Source: Minisyncoccota bacterium (GTDB lineage Bacteria; Patescibacteriota; Minisyncoccia; Phycocordibacterales; UBA9973). From it: a DNA stretch of 64,000 nucleotides. The notes beneath the pieces were generated by a model, which saw only the letters and a list, made by a program, of their open reading frames with translations, made no database searches and was not told the origin of the DNA. Shown piece after piece: positions 19,599-27,653 of this stretch. Positions within the stretch are counted from its first letter, which is position 1; every line of letters begins with the position of its first letter. The translations under genes and the position numbers were made by a program. The DNA lies in the NCBI GenBank assembly GCA_035403785.1, contig DAONFW010000002.1:12676-76675 (forward strand). The letters are read 5' to 3'.

Positions 19599-19707
19599 AG
19601 TATAGATGTGTTGCTTTTGTTATTTTGTATTTTGGCAAAAACAAAATAGCTCAAGAAGCTTAATTTATAACGTTTTCATTATAGCACAATTTTGCTATAA
19701 TAAGTCA

Positions 19708-20781
19708 ATGGAAAATCAACAAAATTTACAAACGAACAAGCCAAAACTTAGTATAAGTTTTTTCTTTTTGTGCTTGGGTGTTTTGATTTCTTTAATAACT
19801 TCTGTTGTTTCTTTTCTTAATTTAGTTTTCAGTACATTAGATAAACGTTTTCCGGATGTTTTGAATGCAACTTATCAGTATGGTTATAATACTTATAATT
19901 ATGAAACGATGCGTATTGCTCTCGCAACGCTAATAATTTTCTTTCCGATTTTTCTAATAGTGTTTCATTTTTGGAAAAAATTTACGAAAAAAGAAATTGG
20001 GCACATAGATCAGGTGTTAAAAAAATGGCTAGTGTATGTAGTTTTATTTTTGTCTACTTTAGTAGTTCTTATTGATCTTGTAACACTTGTAAAATATTTT
20101 GTTTCTGGAGAAATAACTATTAGATTTGTTTATAAAGTTTTAGCTACTTTTGTAACAGCTGTGATTATTGGTAAATATTTTTATATTTCAGAATTCTGGT
20201 CAGCTGAGAAAAAATTATTTAAAAAAATAAATATCAAAAAATTAAATACAATAATTAATCCAATTGCCGGTTCGGTTTTGGTTATTTTGGCTGTTATTTG
20301 GAGTTTCTCAGTTATGGGAAGTCCTATGAAACAAAGAATGCTTAGATTGGACGATAAGAGGGTTTCTGATTTGCAGAGTATTCAGTATCAGGTTATAAAT
20401 TATTGGCAGCAAAAAGAAAAACTGCCAGTTAGATTAGTTGATTTGGCAAATCCAATTTCCGGTTATTCTTTGCCTGTTGACCCAGAATTTGAGAAGGGAA
20501 AAGTTTATGAATATAATTTAAAAGACGAGAAAAATTTAACTTTTGAATTATGTGCAGATTTTTCTTTACCAATGCCAAAAGGTTGGCAAGAATCACAAAA
20601 TTATTATAAAGTAACAGGCTCAGCTGTGCCCATGGAAACAACAACTGATGTGGCTGTTTCTTCTTATCCTTATGCTGGTGGAGTTGGAGAATCATGGGAT
20701 CACCAAACAGGCAGAACTTGCTTTGAAAGAACGATAGATAAAGATTTGTATCCACCTTTTCCGAAAGTATTAAAAAATTAA
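19708..20781 (+). CDS. Hypothetical polytopic membrane protein
   Basis: The ORF opens at 19606; the likely start is MENQQNLQ at 19708. About five predicted TM helices in the N-terminal half and a soluble C-terminal domain. Confidence 0.45.
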   Translation: MENQQNLQTNKPKLSISFFFLCLGVLISLITSVVSFLNLVFSTLDKRFPDVLNATYQYGYNTYNYETMRIALATLIIFFPIFLIVFHFWKKFTKKEIGHIDQVLKKWLVYVVLFLSTLVVLIDLVTLVKYFVSGEITIRFVYKVLATFVTAVIIGKYFYISEFWSAEKKLFKKINIKKLNTIINPIAGSVLVILAVIWSFSVMGSPMKQRMLRLDDKRVSDLQSIQYQVINYWQQKEKLPVRLVDLANPISGYSLPVDPEFEKGKVYEYNLKDEKNLTFELCADFSLPMPKGWQESQNYYKVTGSAVPMETTTDVAVSSYPYAGGVGESWDHQTGRTCFERTIDKDLYPPFPKVLKN

Positions 20782-20822: not shown

Positions 20823-23660
20823 ATGAAAAATTACGATCATAAAAAAATTGAAAAAAAATGGCAGAAAGTTTGGGAAGACAAAAAAATTTATCAAGCCAAG
20901 AATAATTCCAAAAAGAAGAAGTTTTATTCTTTGATTGAATTTCCATATCCGTCTGGTGCTGGGTTGCATGTCGGTCATCCTCGTCCGTATATTGGGATGG
21001 ATATTGTTTCTCGTAAAAAGAGAATGGAAGGATATAATGTTCTTTTCCCAATTGGTTGGGATGCTTTTGGTTTACCAACAGAAAACTATGCTATTAAAAC
21101 TGGAATTCATCCATCAAAAGTCACAAAACAAAATACTGACAATTTTCGTCGTCAAATAAAAATGTTTGGTCCGTCTTTTGATTGGACACGAGAAATAAAC
21201 ACAACTGATCCGACTTATTACAAATGGACGCAGTGGATTTTTTTACAGATGTATAAAAAAGGTTTGGCTTACAAATCAGAAATGCCAATCAATTGGTGTC
21301 CAAAATGTAAAATTGGTCTAGCAAACGAAGAAGTAATAAACGGCAAATGTGAACGATGTGGCGCTGATACAGAAAGAAGATTAAAAAAACAATGGATGTT
21401 GGGAATTACAAAATATGCTGACAGATTAGATAAAGATTTGGATTTAGTTGATTACCCTGAAAGTATAAAATTACAGCAGAGAAACTGGATCGGCAGATCA
21501 GAGGGAAGTGAAATAGAATTTAAAATAAAAAATTCTGATCAGAAAATAAAAGTTTTCACTACACGTGCAGATACTTTGTTCGGTGCGACTTATGTTGTGC
21601 TTGCGCCTGAGCATGAATTGGTGCAGAAGTTAAATTTTGAAAATAAAAAAGAAGTTGAAAATTATATTAAGTCAGTAAAAAGTAAAACTGATATTGAAAG
21701 AACAGATGAGAAAAAAGAAAAAACAGGAGTTGAATTGAAGGGCTTGAAAGCTATCAATCCAGCTAACAGTGAAGAGATTCCAGTTTGGGTTGCTGATTAC
21801 GTTTTAGTTGGTTACGGAACTGGTGCAGTAATGGCAGTACCGGCGCATGATGAGAGAGACTTCGCGTTTGCGAAGAAATATGGGTTAGAAATTAGGCAGG
21901 TAATTGCTCCATTTTTTACTGAAAAAGAAGATGGTAAAGATAAAGTTAGACCTGATAAAAAAACTGTTACTCGAAAAACTGCTTATGCTTTAGTTTTTGA
22001 TAAAAAGAATAATAGATTTTTGTGTTTAGATTGGGAAAAGTTTAATTGGCATTCTGGAATAATTGGTGGTGTCGATGAAGGAGAAACTTATCTAGAAGCA
22101 GCATTAAGAGAAATAAAAGAAGAAACTGGTTATACTAACCTTAAATTTATAAAAGAATTAGGGATGGAACAACATAATAATTTTTTTGCTGCTCATAAAG
22201 ATGAAAATAGGTATGCAATAGGTCGTGGAATGCTTTTTGAACTCATTGATGAAGATAAAATAGAAACAGAAGAAGAACATACTTGTAATCATAAACTTGT
22301 TTGGATAAGAGCTGAGGAGATGAAAGATTGGTTAAATCTTTCGGCTTTTGAGTATATGTGGAAAGCGTATATTTCTGGTTCTGATTGTTTTATTGACGAT
22401 GGAATTTTAATGAACTCTGGAAATTTTAATGACTTAAATTCAGATGAAGCTCGAAATAAAATTACAGAATTTGTTGGGGGAAAAATAGTTACGAAATACA
22501 AATTACGCGATTGGGTCTTTTCAAGACAGAGATATTGGGGAGAACCGATTCCACTTATTCACTGCGAGAAGTGCGGTTGGGTTGCAGTTCCTGAAAAAGA
22601 TTTGCCGGTAAAATTACCAGAAGTAAAAAATTACAAGCCGACCGATACGGGAGAATCGCCGCTTTCTTTAATTTCAAAATGGGTGAATGTAAAATGCCCG
22701 AAGTGTAAAGGGAAAGCGGTGAGAGAAACAGACACAATGCCAAACTGGGCGGGAAGTTCTTGGTATTATTTAAGATACACAGATCCGAAAAATAAAAAAG
22801 AATTTGCGAATAAAAATATTCTAAAATACTGGACGCCGGTAGATTGGTATAACGGTGGCATGGAGCACGTTACTTTGCACTTATTGTATTCAAGATTTTG
22901 GCATAAGTTTTTGTATGATTTGAAATTAGTGCCAACAAAAGAACCGTACAAAAAAAGAACAGCACATGGAATGGTTCTTGCTGCAAACGGCGAAAAGATG
23001 TCTAAATCAAGAGGCAACGTAGTGAACCCAGATGATGTAATAAAATTATACGGAGCTGATACTTTGAGAATTTACGAAATGTTTATTGGGCCTTTCGGTG
23101 ATACTGTTGCTTGGAATGATGAAAGTATAATCGGCCCAAGAAGATTTATTGAGAAAGTTTGGAGAATCAGTCAGAAAGTTTCAAAAGAAAAAACTTCTGG
23201 TGATGTTGTAAAATTGTTGCACAAGACTATCAAGAAAGTAGGAGAAGATATAGAAGAAATGCGTTTCAATACAGCAGTTTCTGCGATGATGATTCTAGCT
23301 AGTGAGTTTGAAAAAGTTGAAGATATAAATATAAAAGATTTTAAATTATTCTTGCAGATTTTGGCACCGTTTACACCGCACGTTGCCGAAGAACTTTGGA
23401 TTTCTTTGGGCGAGAAAAAAACGATACATCTTTCAAGTTGGCCAAAATTTGATAAAAATTTAATAAAAGATGATGAAGTAAAAATAGCTGTTCAGGTAAA
23501 CGGAAAAGTTCGAGCAGAAATGTTGATTCAGATAGATGAGAAAGAAGAAAATATAAAAGAAAAAGCGCTAAAAATAGAGCAAGTTGTTAAATTTACTGAA
23601 AATAAAGAAATAAGAAAAGTAATTTATGTAAAAAACAGACTTGTGAATATCGTAGTGTAG
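20823..23660 (+). CDS. leuS: Leucyl-tRNA synthetase carrying an inserted Nudix-box domain in the CP1 region
   Basis: 945 aa. HIGH motif HVGHPRPY, Zn knuckles CPKCK..CERCG, editing-site TTRADT and GTGAVMAVPAHDERD, KMSKS. About 160 extra residues (aa ~365-525, nt ~21915-22398) contain GGVDEGETYLEAALREIKEETGY, a perfect match to the Nudix box GX5EX7REUXEEXGU. Confidence 0.9.
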   Translation: MKNYDHKKIEKKWQKVWEDKKIYQAKNNSKKKKFYSLIEFPYPSGAGLHVGHPRPYIGMDIVSRKKRMEGYNVLFPIGWDAFGLPTENYAIKTGIHPSKVTKQNTDNFRRQIKMFGPSFDWTREINTTDPTYYKWTQWIFLQMYKKGLAYKSEMPINWCPKCKIGLANEEVINGKCERCGADTERRLKKQWMLGITKYADRLDKDLDLVDYPESIKLQQRNWIGRSEGSEIEFKIKNSDQKIKVFTTRADTLFGATYVVLAPEHELVQKLNFENKKEVENYIKSVKSKTDIERTDEKKEKTGVELKGLKAINPANSEEIPVWVADYVLVGYGTGAVMAVPAHDERDFAFAKKYGLEIRQVIAPFFTEKEDGKDKVRPDKKTVTRKTAYALVFDKKNNRFLCLDWEKFNWHSGIIGGVDEGETYLEAALREIKEETGYTNLKFIKELGMEQHNNFFAAHKDENRYAIGRGMLFELIDEDKIETEEEHTCNHKLVWIRAEEMKDWLNLSAFEYMWKAYISGSDCFIDDGILMNSGNFNDLNSDEARNKITEFVGGKIVTKYKLRDWVFSRQRYWGEPIPLIHCEKCGWVAVPEKDLPVKLPEVKNYKPTDTGESPLSLISKWVNVKCPKCKGKAVRETDTMPNWAGSSWYYLRYTDPKNKKEFANKNILKYWTPVDWYNGGMEHVTLHLLYSRFWHKFLYDLKLVPTKEPYKKRTAHGMVLAANGEKMSKSRGNVVNPDDVIKLYGADTLRIYEMFIGPFGDTVAWNDESIIGPRRFIEKVWRISQKVSKEKTSGDVVKLLHKTIKKVGEDIEEMRFNTAVSAMMILASEFEKVEDINIKDFKLFLQILAPFTPHVAEELWISLGEKKTIHLSSWPKFDKNLIKDDEVKIAVQVNGKVRAEMLIQIDEKEENIKEKALKIEQVVKFTENKEIRKVIYVKNRLVNIVV

Positions 23661-23701: not shown

Positions 23702-25408
23702 ATGGTAAAAAAAATCAGAAACTTTCTCAAGAAAAACTTTCTACTTACTGCTAGCTTAATGTTTCTAGTTGTTTTTTCAGGTACAATGCAGTTATTTGCT
23801 GCTGATCCACCACCTCCAGTAGGTGGTTATCCGGCAGGTACAGTTCTTGATCCAGGTTGTACACCAGGAAGTGTAGATTGTATAGTTGCTCAAGCTGTAT
23901 ATAATGCTGGAGATATTATGTATGATAATTCAACTTCTGGTTTAACTGCTACTGATACTCAGGCTGCGATTGATGAGATAGATGGGGTTGTGGATAATAT
24001 AAACGATTTTACAATTGATGTAAATAATAATATGTTTGCCGGAACTGGAGCGGGAAGTTCTTTGTCTGGTGGCCAAAATAATTTTTTTGCAGGTATTGGT
24101 GCTGGGCAGAATACAACAACGGGAAGTAATAATATCGCTATTGGTTATCAAACACTTTATTCAAACTTAACAGGAAATAAAAATACGTCGAATGGATTTC
24201 AAACACTTTTTTTAAATACAATAGGATATGATAATACAGCCAACGGGTATTTATCCCTTGCTTCGAACACGACAGGATTTCAAAATACTGCTATTGGCCT
24301 TCAATCTCTTACTACAAATACAATTGGATATCAAAATGTAGCTAACGGTGTTCAATCACTTGGCATAAATACAACAGGATATCAAAATACTGCTAATGGG
24401 TATAATGCACTTGTTGGTAACACAACGGGTTGGGCCAACAGTGCTATTGGATATCAAACTCTTTCCACTAATACTACAGGGTCTTATAATACGGCTATCG
24501 GTTATAATGCAGATGTAACTGTAAATAATCTAATTAATGCAACAGCTATTGGTTACAATGCAAAGGTTGGTTCAAGCAATAGTTTGGTCCTTGGAGGAAC
24601 TGGGGCAGATGCTGTGAAAGTTGGAATCGGTACAACAACACCAACTAATGTTCTAGATATTGTTGGGCCAGCATTGGATACAACAGTAGTAAGTATTTCA
24701 ACAACTGGAGGAAATACTTGCACTTTTAATACAGGAGTTAATCCGGGAGTTTGGTCCTGTGCTTCAGATAGAAGATTGAAAAATAGTATTTCTGCTATAG
24801 ATAACAATTTAGCTTTAACAAAGATAAACGCACTTAATCCAGTAATGTTTCATTATAATTGGCAAGAATCTTCAGACCCTTTAGTTCCAGGATTTATTGC
24901 CCAAGAATTCGAAGAAATTTTTCCAGATATGGTTTCAACAAATCCAGAAACTGGTTACAAATCTCTTTCTTACACTCCACTTATTCCATATACAGTGAAA
25001 GCTATTCAAGAACTTGATCTAAAAGTAGAAGACTTAATTGTTGAAAAACAAAATCTATTTAATAATTTAATTGCTTGGTTTGGAAATGTGGGGAATGGAA
25101 TAGAAAAATTATTTGCAAAAGAAATACATACAGATATGATTTGTGTTAAAAAATCAGATGGTACAGAGAGATGTGTCACAGGAGATGAATTAGACCAAGT
25201 TCTTTCAAACTCTGGATTGAATAATATTACTCCTACACAAGCACAAGAACCTATTAGGTCTAATAATGCTGGTGATGTAACAGAAGAAGGAATAGACGGA
25301 ACTGCTCCTAATGAAGCCCAAAATCCAACTACCGAAACTCCTCAATCAGAAACGCCGCTTAGTGATACCCCTACAACAGATACAACAAACCCAACAGAAA
25401 GTGCTTAA
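23702..25408 (+). CDS. Secreted tail-fibre-like protein: ~14-residue Asn/Thr/Gly repeats plus C-terminal Peptidase-S74-type intramolecular chaperone domain
   Basis: 568 aa. Signal peptide; about 10 repeats of the form NTxGxxNTAxGxxxL (aa ~140-270). CASDRRLKNSISAIDNNLALTKINALNPVMFHYNW at nt 24764 onward matches the SDxRxK auto-cleavage motif and downstream pattern of phage tail-spike chaperone domains. Thr/Pro-rich C-terminal tail. Confidence 0.55.
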   Translation: MVKKIRNFLKKNFLLTASLMFLVVFSGTMQLFAADPPPPVGGYPAGTVLDPGCTPGSVDCIVAQAVYNAGDIMYDNSTSGLTATDTQAAIDEIDGVVDNINDFTIDVNNNMFAGTGAGSSLSGGQNNFFAGIGAGQNTTTGSNNIAIGYQTLYSNLTGNKNTSNGFQTLFLNTIGYDNTANGYLSLASNTTGFQNTAIGLQSLTTNTIGYQNVANGVQSLGINTTGYQNTANGYNALVGNTTGWANSAIGYQTLSTNTTGSYNTAIGYNADVTVNNLINATAIGYNAKVGSSNSLVLGGTGADAVKVGIGTTTPTNVLDIVGPALDTTVVSISTTGGNTCTFNTGVNPGVWSCASDRRLKNSISAIDNNLALTKINALNPVMFHYNWQESSDPLVPGFIAQEFEEIFPDMVSTNPETGYKSLSYTPLIPYTVKAIQELDLKVEDLIVEKQNLFNNLIAWFGNVGNGIEKLFAKEIHTDMICVKKSDGTERCVTGDELDQVLSNSGLNNITPTQAQEPIRSNNAGDVTEEGIDGTAPNEAQNPTTETPQSETPLSDTPTTDTTNPTESA

Positions 25409-25496: not shown

Positions 25497-27653
25497 ATGT
25501 CAAAAATCTTCGATAAAATATCTTTTTGGTCGCTATTCGTTACAATAATTTCTCTGCCGTTTTTCTTTTTACCATTTACTAAAATTCCAGTAGAAATTTC
25601 CAAAAGTTTTATTTTGGTTTTAGGTCTTTCTGTTTCTATAATTTTTTGGGCAATCGCAAGATTTTTTGATAGAAAAATAACTGTTCCAAAGTCATGGATT
25701 TTTTTGTCTAGCTCGATCGTTTTGTTTGTGATGCTTCTATCTAGTATTTTTTCTAAAGCTGCCGGTTTTTCTTTTTTTGGAACAATCTTAGATACAAGTT
25801 CTTTCTTTTTTGCACTGTCAGCATTTTTGCTGATGTTCTTTTCATCTTTGATTTTTAAAGACAAAAAAGCTGTTGGTCTAGTTTTTAAAGGTTTAATTAT
25901 TTCATTTTTTGCTTCTGTAGTTTTTCAACTTACACATGTGTTTTTCCCTAAAATATTATCTTTTAATACACTCTTTCAAAAAACAGATAACTTAATTGGA
26001 AGTTTTAATTCTTTCAGCATTTTTGCTGGGTTAGTTATTATTTTTTCAATGCTCGTCCTTTCTTTTGTTTCAGTTTCAAGATTGAATAAAAATATTTTAG
26101 GTTTAACTATTTTAGTTTCTACTTTTCTGATAGCGCTAAATAATTTCTCTTTCATTTGGCTAGTTCTTGGAATTTTTTCTTTGTTTATTTTTATCTATAA
26201 AATTTCTTTTACTTCAGGAATTAAACCAGAGATAGAAAACGCAAAGACAGATACAAATACAGATATTAGTATAAATACAAAAATGAATGTAGAAGAAAAA
26301 AACAAAAATAAATTTGCAGTCATTCCATTTTTGATGGTGATTGTTTCAGTTTTCTTTTTGCTTGGTGGTAGTAATATAAGCAATTTTGCGCCTACGTATT
26401 TTGGAATTTCTAATGCAGAAATCAGACCTTCTTTTTCCGCCACTTTTGATATTGCTAAAAGCACATTAATAAAAAATCCAATATTAGGCTTGGGCCCGAA
26501 TACTTTTTCAAGCTCTTGGGACTTGTATAAGACTGCTTCTATAAACGATACCAATTTTTGGGGAACTTCTTTCGAATTTGGATCTGGAATTTTACCAACT
26601 TATATGACTACGGGAGGTTTTCTTGGGCTGTTAGCTTGGGCGTTCTTTATTTTAGTAATTTCTCTATTTATTCTTAAAAATTTATTTTCGAAAAAAATTA
26701 AAAATTTGTCAGACTGGAGAATTCCTTTGTTCTTAATAATGTCTTTGTACTTATTTGTAGTTTCATTTTTCTACGCAGTGAGTCCAGTTTTAATTTTGTT
26801 AGCGTTTGCTTTCCTTGGAATTTACATCGGTGCATCTGGTTTTAGTAAAGAAATAAATTTTCAGTTTTTGAATAACTCAAGAAAAACTTTCATAGCAGTA
26901 GTTGCTTTAACTATTATCATTCTTGCAGTTATTACAGCTTGTTTCAAATATACTGAAAGATTTATTTCTATTTCTTATTTCCAAAAAACTGTTTCTGCAA
27001 GTTCTGTTGAATTAGCTGAGAAAAATATAAATAAAGCAGTAGCTCTTTATCCTAACGATTTATATTTGCGTACTTACACACAAGTTTATTTGTTAAAATT
27101 TAAAACTATTTCAGCAAAAGGCGCTTCGATTACAGATTCTGAAAAAGCTGAATTAAAAGATAGTTTTGATAAAACTATCGCTGCTGGAGAATTGGCTATC
27201 AAATACAATAGAAATAATTATTTGAATTTCAAATCTCTTGGGATCGCTTATGAAACTTTTGCAACATATGGGATACAAAATGCAGGGAATATGGCAGTAG
27301 AAGCATACAAAAAAGCTTCTGAACTTAACCCTAAAAATCCTGGTTTAAAATTAGATATTGCCCGCGCTGCTTTTGCTATAAGCAATACTGAAGAGGCAAA
27401 AAAGTACGCGTTAGAATCATTTGATCTTAAAAAAGATTATATCGATGCAATGGTTATGCTTGCACAAATTTTAAAGAGTGAAGGAAATTTGAAAGAAGCA
27501 ATGATGTATGGAGATTTGGCTTTGTCTTACAATCCTACAAATACTCAGCTGGCTCAATTTGTTGATTCACTAAGTATTCAAAACATTTCTCCTGTTGGTT
27601 CTGAAAAAGATACTGATAAAACAGGGAAAGAAACAGAATCAAAAAAACAGTAA
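25497..27653 (+). CDS. O-antigen ligase/polymerase-like (Wzy_C-type) polytopic membrane protein with C-terminal TPR repeats
   Basis: 718 aa. At least 10 TM helices, a large extracytoplasmic loop with LGLGPNTF (typical of Wzy_C/O-antigen ligase-like proteins), and a C-terminal ~220 aa with TPR-like repeats (AYKKASELNPKNPG..., ALSYNPTN). Confidence 0.55.
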   Translation: MSKIFDKISFWSLFVTIISLPFFFLPFTKIPVEISKSFILVLGLSVSIIFWAIARFFDRKITVPKSWIFLSSSIVLFVMLLSSIFSKAAGFSFFGTILDTSSFFFALSAFLLMFFSSLIFKDKKAVGLVFKGLIISFFASVVFQLTHVFFPKILSFNTLFQKTDNLIGSFNSFSIFAGLVIIFSMLVLSFVSVSRLNKNILGLTILVSTFLIALNNFSFIWLVLGIFSLFIFIYKISFTSGIKPEIENAKTDTNTDISINTKMNVEEKNKNKFAVIPFLMVIVSVFFLLGGSNISNFAPTYFGISNAEIRPSFSATFDIAKSTLIKNPILGLGPNTFSSSWDLYKTASINDTNFWGTSFEFGSGILPTYMTTGGFLGLLAWAFFILVISLFILKNLFSKKIKNLSDWRIPLFLIMSLYLFVVSFFYAVSPVLILLAFAFLGIYIGASGFSKEINFQFLNNSRKTFIAVVALTIIILAVITACFKYTERFISISYFQKTVSASSVELAEKNINKAVALYPNDLYLRTYTQVYLLKFKTISAKGASITDSEKAELKDSFDKTIAAGELAIKYNRNNYLNFKSLGIAYETFATYGIQNAGNMAVEAYKKASELNPKNPGLKLDIARAAFAISNTEEAKKYALESFDLKKDYIDAMVMLAQILKSEGNLKEAMMYGDLALSYNPTNTQLAQFVDSLSIQNISPVGSEKDTDKTGKETESKKQ

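Follow-up and report, generated by a model that had tools for sequence, protein, structure and literature searches.

The leuS gene at positions 20823..23660 (+) of a 64,000-nucleotide stretch of contig DAONFW010000002.1, from a Minisyncoccota bacterium (the window, meaning the whole stretch that was analysed), encodes a leucyl-tRNA synthetase (LeuRS) that almost certainly carries a Nudix hydrolase domain nested within its CP1 editing domain. Judged from the sequences of its relatives, this nesting is the normal architecture of LeuRS across a large part of the Patescibacteria (CPR, Candidate Phyla Radiation). The same sequence comparisons indicate that the Nudix cassette is exchanged INDEPENDENTLY of the host gene, with a history decoupled from that of LeuRS. 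An earlier note on this DNA, made from the sequence alone, had recognised the inserted domain but had missed this exchange, which is the main surprise of the analysis. Both parts of the protein belong to known families; what is new is their nested arrangement, its breadth and the exchange behaviour.

A Nudix domain nested in the CP1 editing domain of LeuRS

The gene has the features listed below. Residue conservation, here and throughout, was read from an alignment of 102 sequences for LeuRS and cassette alike.

20823..23660 (+): leuS, bacterial-type leucyl-tRNA synthetase with nested Nudix cassette, complete, 945 aa (open reading frame, TIGR00396, AlphaFold2 (AF2) model)
20967..20978 (+): HIGH-type signature HVGH, aa 49-52, read from the sequence; H49, G51 and H52 invariant
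21489..21905 (+): CP1 editing domain, N-terminal part, aa 223-361 (Pfam PF13603 in two stretches)
21558-21575 (+): T-rich motif TTRADT, aa 246-251; T246, T247, R248, D250 and T251 invariant
21816-21860 (+): editing motif GTGAVMAVPAHDERD, aa 332-346 (GTG...HD..D); G332, T333, G334, H342, D343, R345 and D346 invariant
21906..22400 (+): Nudix cassette, aa 362-526, in place of a CP1 loop of about 14 residues (alignment to Thermus thermophilus LeuRS)
21972..22325 (+): Pfam NUDIX core, aa 384-501 (PF00293, 43.0 bits against a cutoff of 21.1, E 5.6e-11)
22065..22133 (+): Nudix box GGVDEGETYLEAALREIKEETGY, aa 415-437, fitting GX5EX7REUXEEXGU; G415, G416, E430, E433 and E434 invariant
22401..22502 (+): CP1 C-terminal strand and helix (GILMNSGNFNDLNSDEARNKITEF...), resuming 3' of the cassette (T. 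thermophilus LeuRS alignment restarts at query residue 523)
22995..23009 (+): KMSKS loop, aa 725-729, read from the sequence; K725, S727 and K728 invariant
23208..23549 (+): anticodon-binding domain, aa 796-909 (Pfam PF08264, 77 bits)

The reading frame runs unbroken from ATG to stop and, as the earlier note had read it, is a single 945-codon LeuRS in which the landmarks HVGH, TTRADT, GTGAVMAVPAHDERD and KMSKS are all present and conserved. The NCBIfam model TIGR00396 (leuS_bact) matches on either side of the insert, as two stretches, with 1021.2 bits (cutoff 548.4), and Pfam places tRNA-synt_1, PF13603 (the editing domain, two stretches, 230 bits) and Anticodon_1 on the protein. With other bacterial LeuRS (TIGR00396; T. 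thermophilus 1H3N/2BTE, E. coli 4AQ7/5ON3) it shares the class Ia core, the HIGH and KMSKS signatures, the zinc knuckles, the CP1 editing domain with its T-rich and GTG/HD..D motifs, and the anticodon-binding and C-terminal domains. Identity to these solved structures is 30-36%, with a template modelling (TM) score of about 0.8; in the whole-protein AF2 model (predicted local distance difference test, pLDDT, 88.4), the LeuRS body superimposes on the T. thermophilus and E. coli enzymes with target-normalised TM scores of 0.79-0.83 (Foldseek; E 7.5e-81 to 2BTE). The leucine-specific domain of T. thermophilus LeuRS (~594-636), in contrast, has no counterpart in the window protein, where the core leads directly to KMSKS. 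By its sequence, the window LeuRS is intact and editing-competent.

Within CP1, the alignment to T. thermophilus LeuRS, whose editing domain we take to span residues 224-417, breaks at query 361/Tth 362 and restarts at query 523/Tth 377, with ~160 residues in the window protein standing against a ~14-residue loop in the thermophile (Tth 362-377). The earlier note had proposed an insertion of about this size, missing from ordinary bacterial LeuRS and containing a true Nudix domain with a perfect box, and each of these points is borne out: PF00293 finds the domain in the full protein and again in the excised insert (48.3 bits, cutoff 21.1), and GGVDEGETYLEAALREIKEETGY is the sole Nudix box in a six-frame translation of the 64-kb window. 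Modelled alone, the insert adopts a Nudix alpha/beta/alpha sandwich (pLDDT 93.4; predicted TM score, pTM, 0.87), and in the whole-protein model it forms the discrete domain that had been envisaged.

The three metal-binding glutamates of the cassette, E430, E433 and E434, are invariant, as is K459, while R384, G436, N462, R463, L474, E486, H490 and W494 are conserved in at least 90% of the aligned sequences. Among 120 homologs (described below), 99 have a strict Nudix box and 19 depart from it at no position but the first Glu (replaced by Gln) or the Arg; the E-x-x-E-E core is kept in all 118 that bear the insert. The ratio of nonsynonymous to synonymous substitution rates (dN/dS) for the cassette is 0.10-0.25 against loci L014, L016 and L017, the pairs in which dS is unsaturated; in the LeuRS body dS is saturated in most pairs. 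Invariant catalytic residues and a dN/dS far below 1 argue that enzymatic function has been maintained, and on these sequence grounds the cassette is probably an active enzyme. Its base composition is also distinct: G+C is 0.29-0.31 across 21850-22450 and 0.36-0.41 in the flanking parts of leuS (window mean 0.326), which fits either weaker constraint or a different origin.

The architecture recurs across Patescibacteria

We compared the window protein with its 120 best LeuRS matches in a collection of 5.8 billion proteins (56-75% identity). That related bacteria might share the insertion had been raised earlier, and it is indeed present in 118 of these closest LeuRS, which derive from JGI, ENA, NCBI and Logan assemblies and, where named, are assigned to Paceibacterota, Nomurabacteria, Minisyncoccia or Patescibacteria. 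Species-representative genomes, when scanned with the insert sequence, gave at least 329 matching stretches, and about 70 of the 80 loci fetched from these are LeuRS with a Nudix domain at the window's site. Because the same architecture recurs in so many independent assemblies, a mis-join is effectively excluded.

Current annotation calls such proteins only 'class I tRNA ligase family protein' or 'NUDIX domain-containing protein', and the feature is effectively invisible there; in one UniRef entry, a Nomurabacteria leucine--tRNA ligase (P0045), the precomputed Pfam matches already include PF00293. The earlier note knew of no described LeuRS-Nudix architecture, and the searchable literature, outside which most subscription journals lie, likewise yielded no account of the architecture, of its multi-site distribution or of cassette exchange.

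Some loci in the scan were unusual. Two labelled Candidatus Peribacteria (L021, L075) have a LeuRS-Nudix frame split into several pieces by table 11 stops, which could reflect an alternative genetic code (UGA as a sense codon), pseudogenisation or sequencing errors. Three labelled Pacearchaeota, Woesearchaeota or Nanoarchaeia archaeon (L049, L074, L091) encode a bacterial-type LeuRS with a Nudix cassette, and are either mis-binned CPR contigs or cases of CPR leuS transferred into DPANN archaea.

Cassette and host gene have separate histories

The dynamics of the cassette were the least expected result, and no functional model fully explains them. Across the 118 insert-bearing homologs (7021 pairs), identity in the LeuRS body and identity in the insert show a Spearman correlation of 0.005, and relative to the window protein the value is -0.57. 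For example, the three LeuRS bodies closest to that of the window (P0001-P0003, 83-85%) carry inserts that are just 32-35% identical to its own, and the inserts closest to the window's (P0004, P0005 and P0011, 75-78%) sit in bodies that are 67-72% identical. BLASTP of extreme pairs gave the same picture: the two body halves and the insert are 92%, 98% and 29% identical between P0082 and P0106, 93%, 91% and 39% between P0096 and P0104, and 94%, 89% and 39% between P0001 and P0002.

The mosaic is also seen at the DNA level. Between the P0082 and P0106 genes, which come from two assemblies, identity is 100% over codons ~120-335 and 97-100% per 60-nt window over codons ~546-920, but only ~35-60% over codons ~350-535. 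Window leuS and its nearest relative, L096, are 0.73-0.98 identical in the body, 0.38-0.60 over codons ~358-520, and 0.79-0.97 thereafter. Against the more distant L014 the order is reversed, the cassette (0.77-0.89) being more similar than the body (0.5-0.78). From these profiles the segment that appears to have been exchanged can be delimited, and its boundaries are the same in the P0082/P0106 pair:

21850..22440 (+): exchanged segment, approximate, cassette plus ~15 codons on each side (sliding-window DNA identity against L096 and L014)

No meaningful direct or inverted DNA repeats were found at the cassette borders. In the P0082/P0106 pair (loci L094 and L095), the first ~330 nt of leuS are also divergent (67-87% identical) in genes that are otherwise alike outside the cassette. 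Thus, recombination tracts are not confined to the cassette.

At the window's insertion site (site A, Q361/527) the cassettes fall into 23 clades, and more than one of these is found in 10 of the 18 multi-member body clades (>=80% identity). The body clade of the window LeuRS holds four cassette clades and, in addition, two members without an insert, P0070/P0077. They lie in a locus that is syntenic with the window (Sua5, methyltransferase, DUF5671, leuS, MurJ), and the insert-less LeuRS body is 83% identical to the window's; leuS there lacks what corresponds to window nt ~21895-22450, including the GILMNSGNFNDLNSDEARNKITEF strand and helix, and the 10-kb locus contains no Nudix box. For a core gene of translation this behaviour is unusual: identical flanks enclose unrelated inserts, and the cassette is found at many sites and in varying copy number.

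Other sites, copies and hosts of the same Nudix family

A profile search of 1.84 billion cluster representatives returned 174 matches at E <= 1e-30, of which we classified the top 150. Most of these are LeuRS with the Nudix domain at site A. Within this set the same family occupies at least four LeuRS sites, the others being site B near Q208-215, just before CP1 (e.g. P0123, P0179), site C near Q238-240 in the first CP1 hairpin (P0125, P0126, P0254), and site D near Q624-633 in the zinc-knuckle region (P0130, P0223, P0256). Copies can stand in tandem at one site (P0131) or number up to three in one LeuRS (P0121, P0122), and a copy at site B or C groups with site-A copies from other LeuRS, not with the copy in its own protein. 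P0127, considered as a LeuRS-free double-Nudix protein, was rejected as such: it is part of a frameshifted LeuRS in which cassettes stand in tandem at site B.

The family also includes stand-alone genes of ~160 aa. One (P0136) lies 2 bp upstream of an insert-bearing leuS; a second (P0172) lies 3 bp upstream of an insert-less leuS, and is a split version of the fusion; a third (P0215) has argS on one side and ileS on the other, and four further Nudix genes share its locus. The gene order DUF5671, optional stand-alone Nudix gene, leuS recurs in relatives, and in the window its first member is the conserved upstream synteny marker:

19606..20781 (+): DUF5671 membrane-protein gene (Pfam PF18920)

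Hosts other than LeuRS were found as well. P0235 (L008:2906-4837 (+)) and P0271-P0274 are class II prolyl-tRNA synthetases (ProRS, with a ProRS-C_1 C-terminal domain) in which a domain of this Nudix family separates the anticodon-binding domain from the C-terminal one; of the 120 closest ProRS only 5 have this arrangement, and the neighbours that lack the insert carry Nanoarchaeota or Woesearchaeota labels. A family of Firmicute/Clostridiales 'NUDIX domain-containing proteins' of ~276 aa (272 matches, each a PF13603 fragment plus PF00293; P0390-P0506, P0216, P0229, P0239, P0240; L084:3743-4573 (+), L085) is a pared-down CP1 scaffold with the Nudix domain at exactly site A. These proteins have in common with the window LeuRS the Nudix family, the point of insertion in the CP1 hairpin and the junctions ...KQV(I/V)APYF and ...GDG(I/L)M. 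Unlike it, they have no synthetase body and a reduced CP1, and they lie in ordinary Firmicute chromosomal contexts on contigs of up to 662 kb. The T-rich motif and GTG loop have been lost from them, which suggests that the CP1 remnant serves as a scaffold, not as an editing site; the Nudix box is at least 90% conserved. Some clusters of this family have hundreds of members, and some of the contigs exceed 300 kb.

Further insertions and Nudix genes were seen in these searches. A second CP1 insertion hot spot lies in the first hairpin, at window aa ~235-240 (nt ~21525-21542), where some CPR LeuRS have 150-330 extra residues (P0039, P0048, P0060, P0062, P0074, P0083, P0097, P0110, P0113); the domains there, from precomputed Pfam, include the endonuclease-like DUF559/PF18741 and the alpha/beta-hydrolases PF00561 and PF12695. 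A further ~168 residues are present near aa 207 in P0042 and P0050. In L051, L052, L061 and L080 (labelled Saccharibacteria, Saccharimonadales or Saccharimonas), an extra Nudix gene of ~170 aa that matches the cassette profile more weakly follows leuS, ~1.2-1.7 kb downstream. Locus L011 (10.5 kb) has five separate Nudix genes among argS, dUTPase, thymidylate-kinase-like and zeta-toxin-like genes, together with an 1184-aa IleRS containing a His_Phos_1 (histidine-phosphatase) domain, another synthetase with a nested foreign enzyme.

A tethered hydrolase as the favoured explanation

We favour a model, to which as a whole we give an even chance, in which an editing-competent LeuRS hosts a tethered, autonomous Nudix hydrolase as an exchangeable cassette. 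A distal surface loop of CP1 would carry an autonomous and catalytically competent Nudix pyrophosphohydrolase that takes no part in the editing reaction. Selection would keep this enzyme tethered, physically or genetically, to aminoacyl-tRNA synthetases (aaRSs); its likeliest task would be to hydrolyse a nucleotide by-product of amino-acid activation (diadenosine tetraphosphate, Ap4A, or Ap4N) near its source; and homologous recombination through the conserved LeuRS flanks would swap or remove the Nudix clade, independent of the descent of the host gene. That the encoded LeuRS is fully functional and editing-competent is one part of this model, and its intact sequence agrees with it. The data above establish the anatomy, the fold, the upkeep of the catalytic residues, purifying selection, the repeated link to aaRS genes and the exchange of cassettes, whereas catalysis itself, an advantage of tethering and an ApnA-type substrate are inferences.

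The association with aaRSs is recurrent but not geometrically fixed, and the cassette can be dispensed with; together these points favour a tethered or co-expressed small-molecule pyrophosphohydrolase. We regard a link between cassette function and aaRS chemistry as about equally likely to hold or to fail. A dinucleoside polyphosphate (ApnA) substrate is a tentative suggestion, the less probable side of the question; it is the most economical guess because aaRSs make Ap4A, Nudix enzymes degrade it, and the characterised folds nearest to the cassette include ApnA hydrolases. Ap4A hydrolysis had already been put forward in the earlier note, and by analogy it stays plausible: aaRSs are among the main sources of Ap4A, which Nudix enzymes break down (PMC10148737).

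The characterised neighbours of the cassette, by fold and by profile, include ApnA hydrolases (Aquifex aq_158, 3I7U; T. thermophilus Ndx1, 1VC8; M. tuberculosis Rv2985, 9CXX; lupin, 1F3Y). Identity to these and to 2AZW is only 18-22%, and they are free-standing whereas the cassette is nested in another enzyme. The cassette family is further set apart by a motif of its own, F/Y-A-x-H-K-x-x-N-R, and by E486, H490 and W494. An aromatic residue (Tyr) ~16-18 residues past the box marks the ApnA subfamily; the window protein has F454/F455 at +17/+18, aromatic but without the diagnostic Tyr, and F-Y is the consensus in the cassette family. Membership of any named Nudix subfamily was rejected, since the NCBIfam equivalogs fall below cutoff (best RppH, 27.9 bits against 116; NudE, 23.3 against 169; MutT, 12.8 against 97.9) and sequence matches in the PDB are weak.

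Several observations weigh against the favoured explanation. The cassette evolves fast, with a mean pairwise identity of 36-40% in the insert and 70-77% in the LeuRS body, and it is dispensable in at least one lineage. Stand-alone members other than those described above adjoin fpg, adjoin another Nudix gene, or have no leuS within 4 kb. As to the substrate, all of the NCBIfam Nudix equivalogs (RppH, NudE, NudB, MutT, YtkD, NudI, YfcD) score far below cutoff; the nearest fold overall is 2AZW, an uncharacterised E. faecalis Nudix protein; and the best profile matches are AvrM14 Nudix effectors, which are reported to decap mRNA. Fold similarity is in any case a poor guide to substrate among Nudix enzymes, LeuRS is to our knowledge not among the strongest Ap4A producers, and what proximity would gain for a freely diffusing small molecule is not obvious. 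As to the exchange, some mosaics may in principle be metagenome-assembly chimeras between strains, a caveat tempered by the recurrence of protein-level discordance in many independent pairs.

Alternative explanations

The alternative that survives best, though we think it unlikely, is that an ordinary housekeeping Nudix enzyme (a MutT-like, ADP-ribose or NDP-sugar pyrophosphatase) has been parked in a LeuRS loop without any link to aminoacylation; in tiny, streamlined genomes, the permissive loop of a constitutively expressed essential gene would provide the setting. Stand-alone members lie 4 bp from an Fpg/Nei glycosylase gene, which suggests a GO (oxidised guanine) repair context, and the neighbours of another include dUTPase and thymidylate kinase genes as well as four further Nudix genes. 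M. smegmatis MutT1 and T. thermophilus ADP-ribose pyrophosphatase rank high in Foldseek. Dispensability and fast evolution agree with this view too, and the variable position speaks against geometric coupling. Neutral parking, however, does not predict that the domain should have become associated with aaRSs repeatedly and independently, within LeuRS (at least four sites, and in tandem), next to leuS as an abutting gene, within ProRS and between argS and ileS, nor does it predict that the Firmicute derivatives should have kept a CP1 remnant.

A second alternative, somewhat less likely again, is a selfish or conflict-driven cassette that colonises conserved aaRS loops and uses the conserved flanks as recombination arms, persisting either as a tolerated parasite or under diversifying or balancing selection (for example, by hydrolysing a toxin or signal nucleotide). 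The behaviour of the cassette invites this view. Its phylogeny is decoupled from the host gene, with 23 clades at one site; identical flanks surround unrelated cassettes; close relatives are polymorphic for its presence; and it occurs at multiple sites and in multiple copies whose clades do not track the site. It has spread to ProRS with DPANN-labelled relatives and, with a CP1 remnant, to Firmicutes, and other foreign domains (DUF559/PF18741, alpha/beta-hydrolases) occupy the second CP1 hot spot. In these respects it resembles inteins and homing elements, though in behaviour only: they likewise occupy conserved sites of essential genes, with several alternative sites per host, presence/absence polymorphism, host-discordant phylogeny and spread to other hosts.

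The molecular make-up of the cassette does not fit that picture. Inteins have a Hint/splicing domain, conserved nucleophilic C/S/T residues at the N-junction and at +1 of the C-junction, and an endonuclease, none of which the cassette has; unlike an intein, it stays in the mature protein with a conserved catalytic site of its own. Neither a Hint or intein family nor a nuclease was detected in the cassette by Pfam, the junctions (...APFF|TEKE... and ...FIDD|GILM...) vary among homologs, and with no repeats at the borders an intein or mobile-element identity was rejected. A defence-system or phage origin was rejected likewise: PADLOC gave no match for the insert or for P0136, P0185 and P0106, the Firmicute CP1-remnant protein matched only the candidate PDC-S07, weakly and generically, and PHROGs returned only generic Nudix families. 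Invariant catalytic residues and low dN/dS are also hard to square with selfishness, and the divergent 5' tract of P0082/P0106 shows recombination that is not specific to the cassette. A related reading, which we rate no more highly than the housekeeping one, is a horizontally exchanged, non-splicing enzymatic cassette of aaRS loops, of a kind not seen before, that is kept polymorphic (at least 23 clades at one site) by an antagonistic interaction; it might, for example, destroy a nucleotide-type toxin or signal aimed at, or made by, the synthetase, and would not then serve housekeeping chemistry.

Quite improbable is an RNA-end enzyme (a decapping enzyme or 5'-pyrophosphohydrolase like RppH, NudC or AvrM14) for which the synthetase would be a tRNA- or RNA-binding platform, and which would remove 5'-triphosphate, NAD or Np4N caps from tRNA or other RNAs. 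Such enzymes do appear among the matches, but only as weak hits of a kind common to Nudix enzymes in general; the points of insertion are dispersed across the surface of LeuRS, and some stand-alone forms have no RNA-binding partner. Mature tRNA, moreover, has a 5'-monophosphate after RNase P, which counts against the idea.

The earlier note had suggested that the module might couple editing to the clearance of aminoacyl-adenylates; such a role, or any other help in pre- or post-transfer editing, we consider very improbable. The commonest site does lie inside CP1 with the editing motifs intact alongside, and in the Firmicute derivatives a remnant of CP1 still surrounds the Nudix domain. The remnant, however, has neither T-rich motif nor GTG loop, and the same family occurs outside CP1, as a separate gene, and in ProRS of a kind without the INS editing domain. 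Because the family occupies these other places, and a syntenic close relative has no cassette at all, the exact position in CP1 is not essential. Clearance of aminoacyl-adenylates is chemically unlikely in itself: Nudix enzymes act on nucleoside diphosphate-X compounds, and aa-AMP, an acyl-phosphate, contains only one phosphate. Finally, the window is probably metagenome-derived, but a chimeric assembly or frameshifted fusion of two genes is dismissed by the in-frame architecture of 118 of 120 homologs from independent assemblies and of ~70 of 80 loci, by a continuous frame under purifying selection, and by a fold predicted confidently in the whole-protein context.

The CP1 domain of LeuRS is a drug target (benzoxaboroles), and aaRS editing domains are among the best-studied protein modules. 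That a second, unrelated active site should be nested in CP1 as the norm for a large bacterial branch would surprise specialists. The closest parallel we noted is an IleRS with a GNAT domain (NCBIfam NF040702), which likewise joins an essential class I synthetase and an unrelated enzymatic domain in one polypeptide; by comparison, the Nudix domain of LeuRS is nested in CP1, splits the editing-domain sequence, occurs at several sites and copy numbers, and is exchanged between alleles. If the tethered hydrolase that we favour is correct, it would offer a testable, direct link between a synthetase and nucleotide or alarmone turnover, and in the Ap4A field clear evidence for physically coupled production and removal has long been wanting. 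The exchange itself is a natural experiment in how essential enzymes tolerate and exchange whole domains.

Genes downstream of leuS

The gene directly downstream of leuS, at window positions 23702-25408 (+), encodes a secreted repeat protein of 568 aa; its Peptidase_S74 (endosialidase-chaperone) domain is one typically found in phage tail-fibre-like proteins. In the syntenic loci L095 and L097 neither this gene nor the TPR membrane-protein gene that follows it (25497-27653) is present, and MurJ comes directly after leuS.

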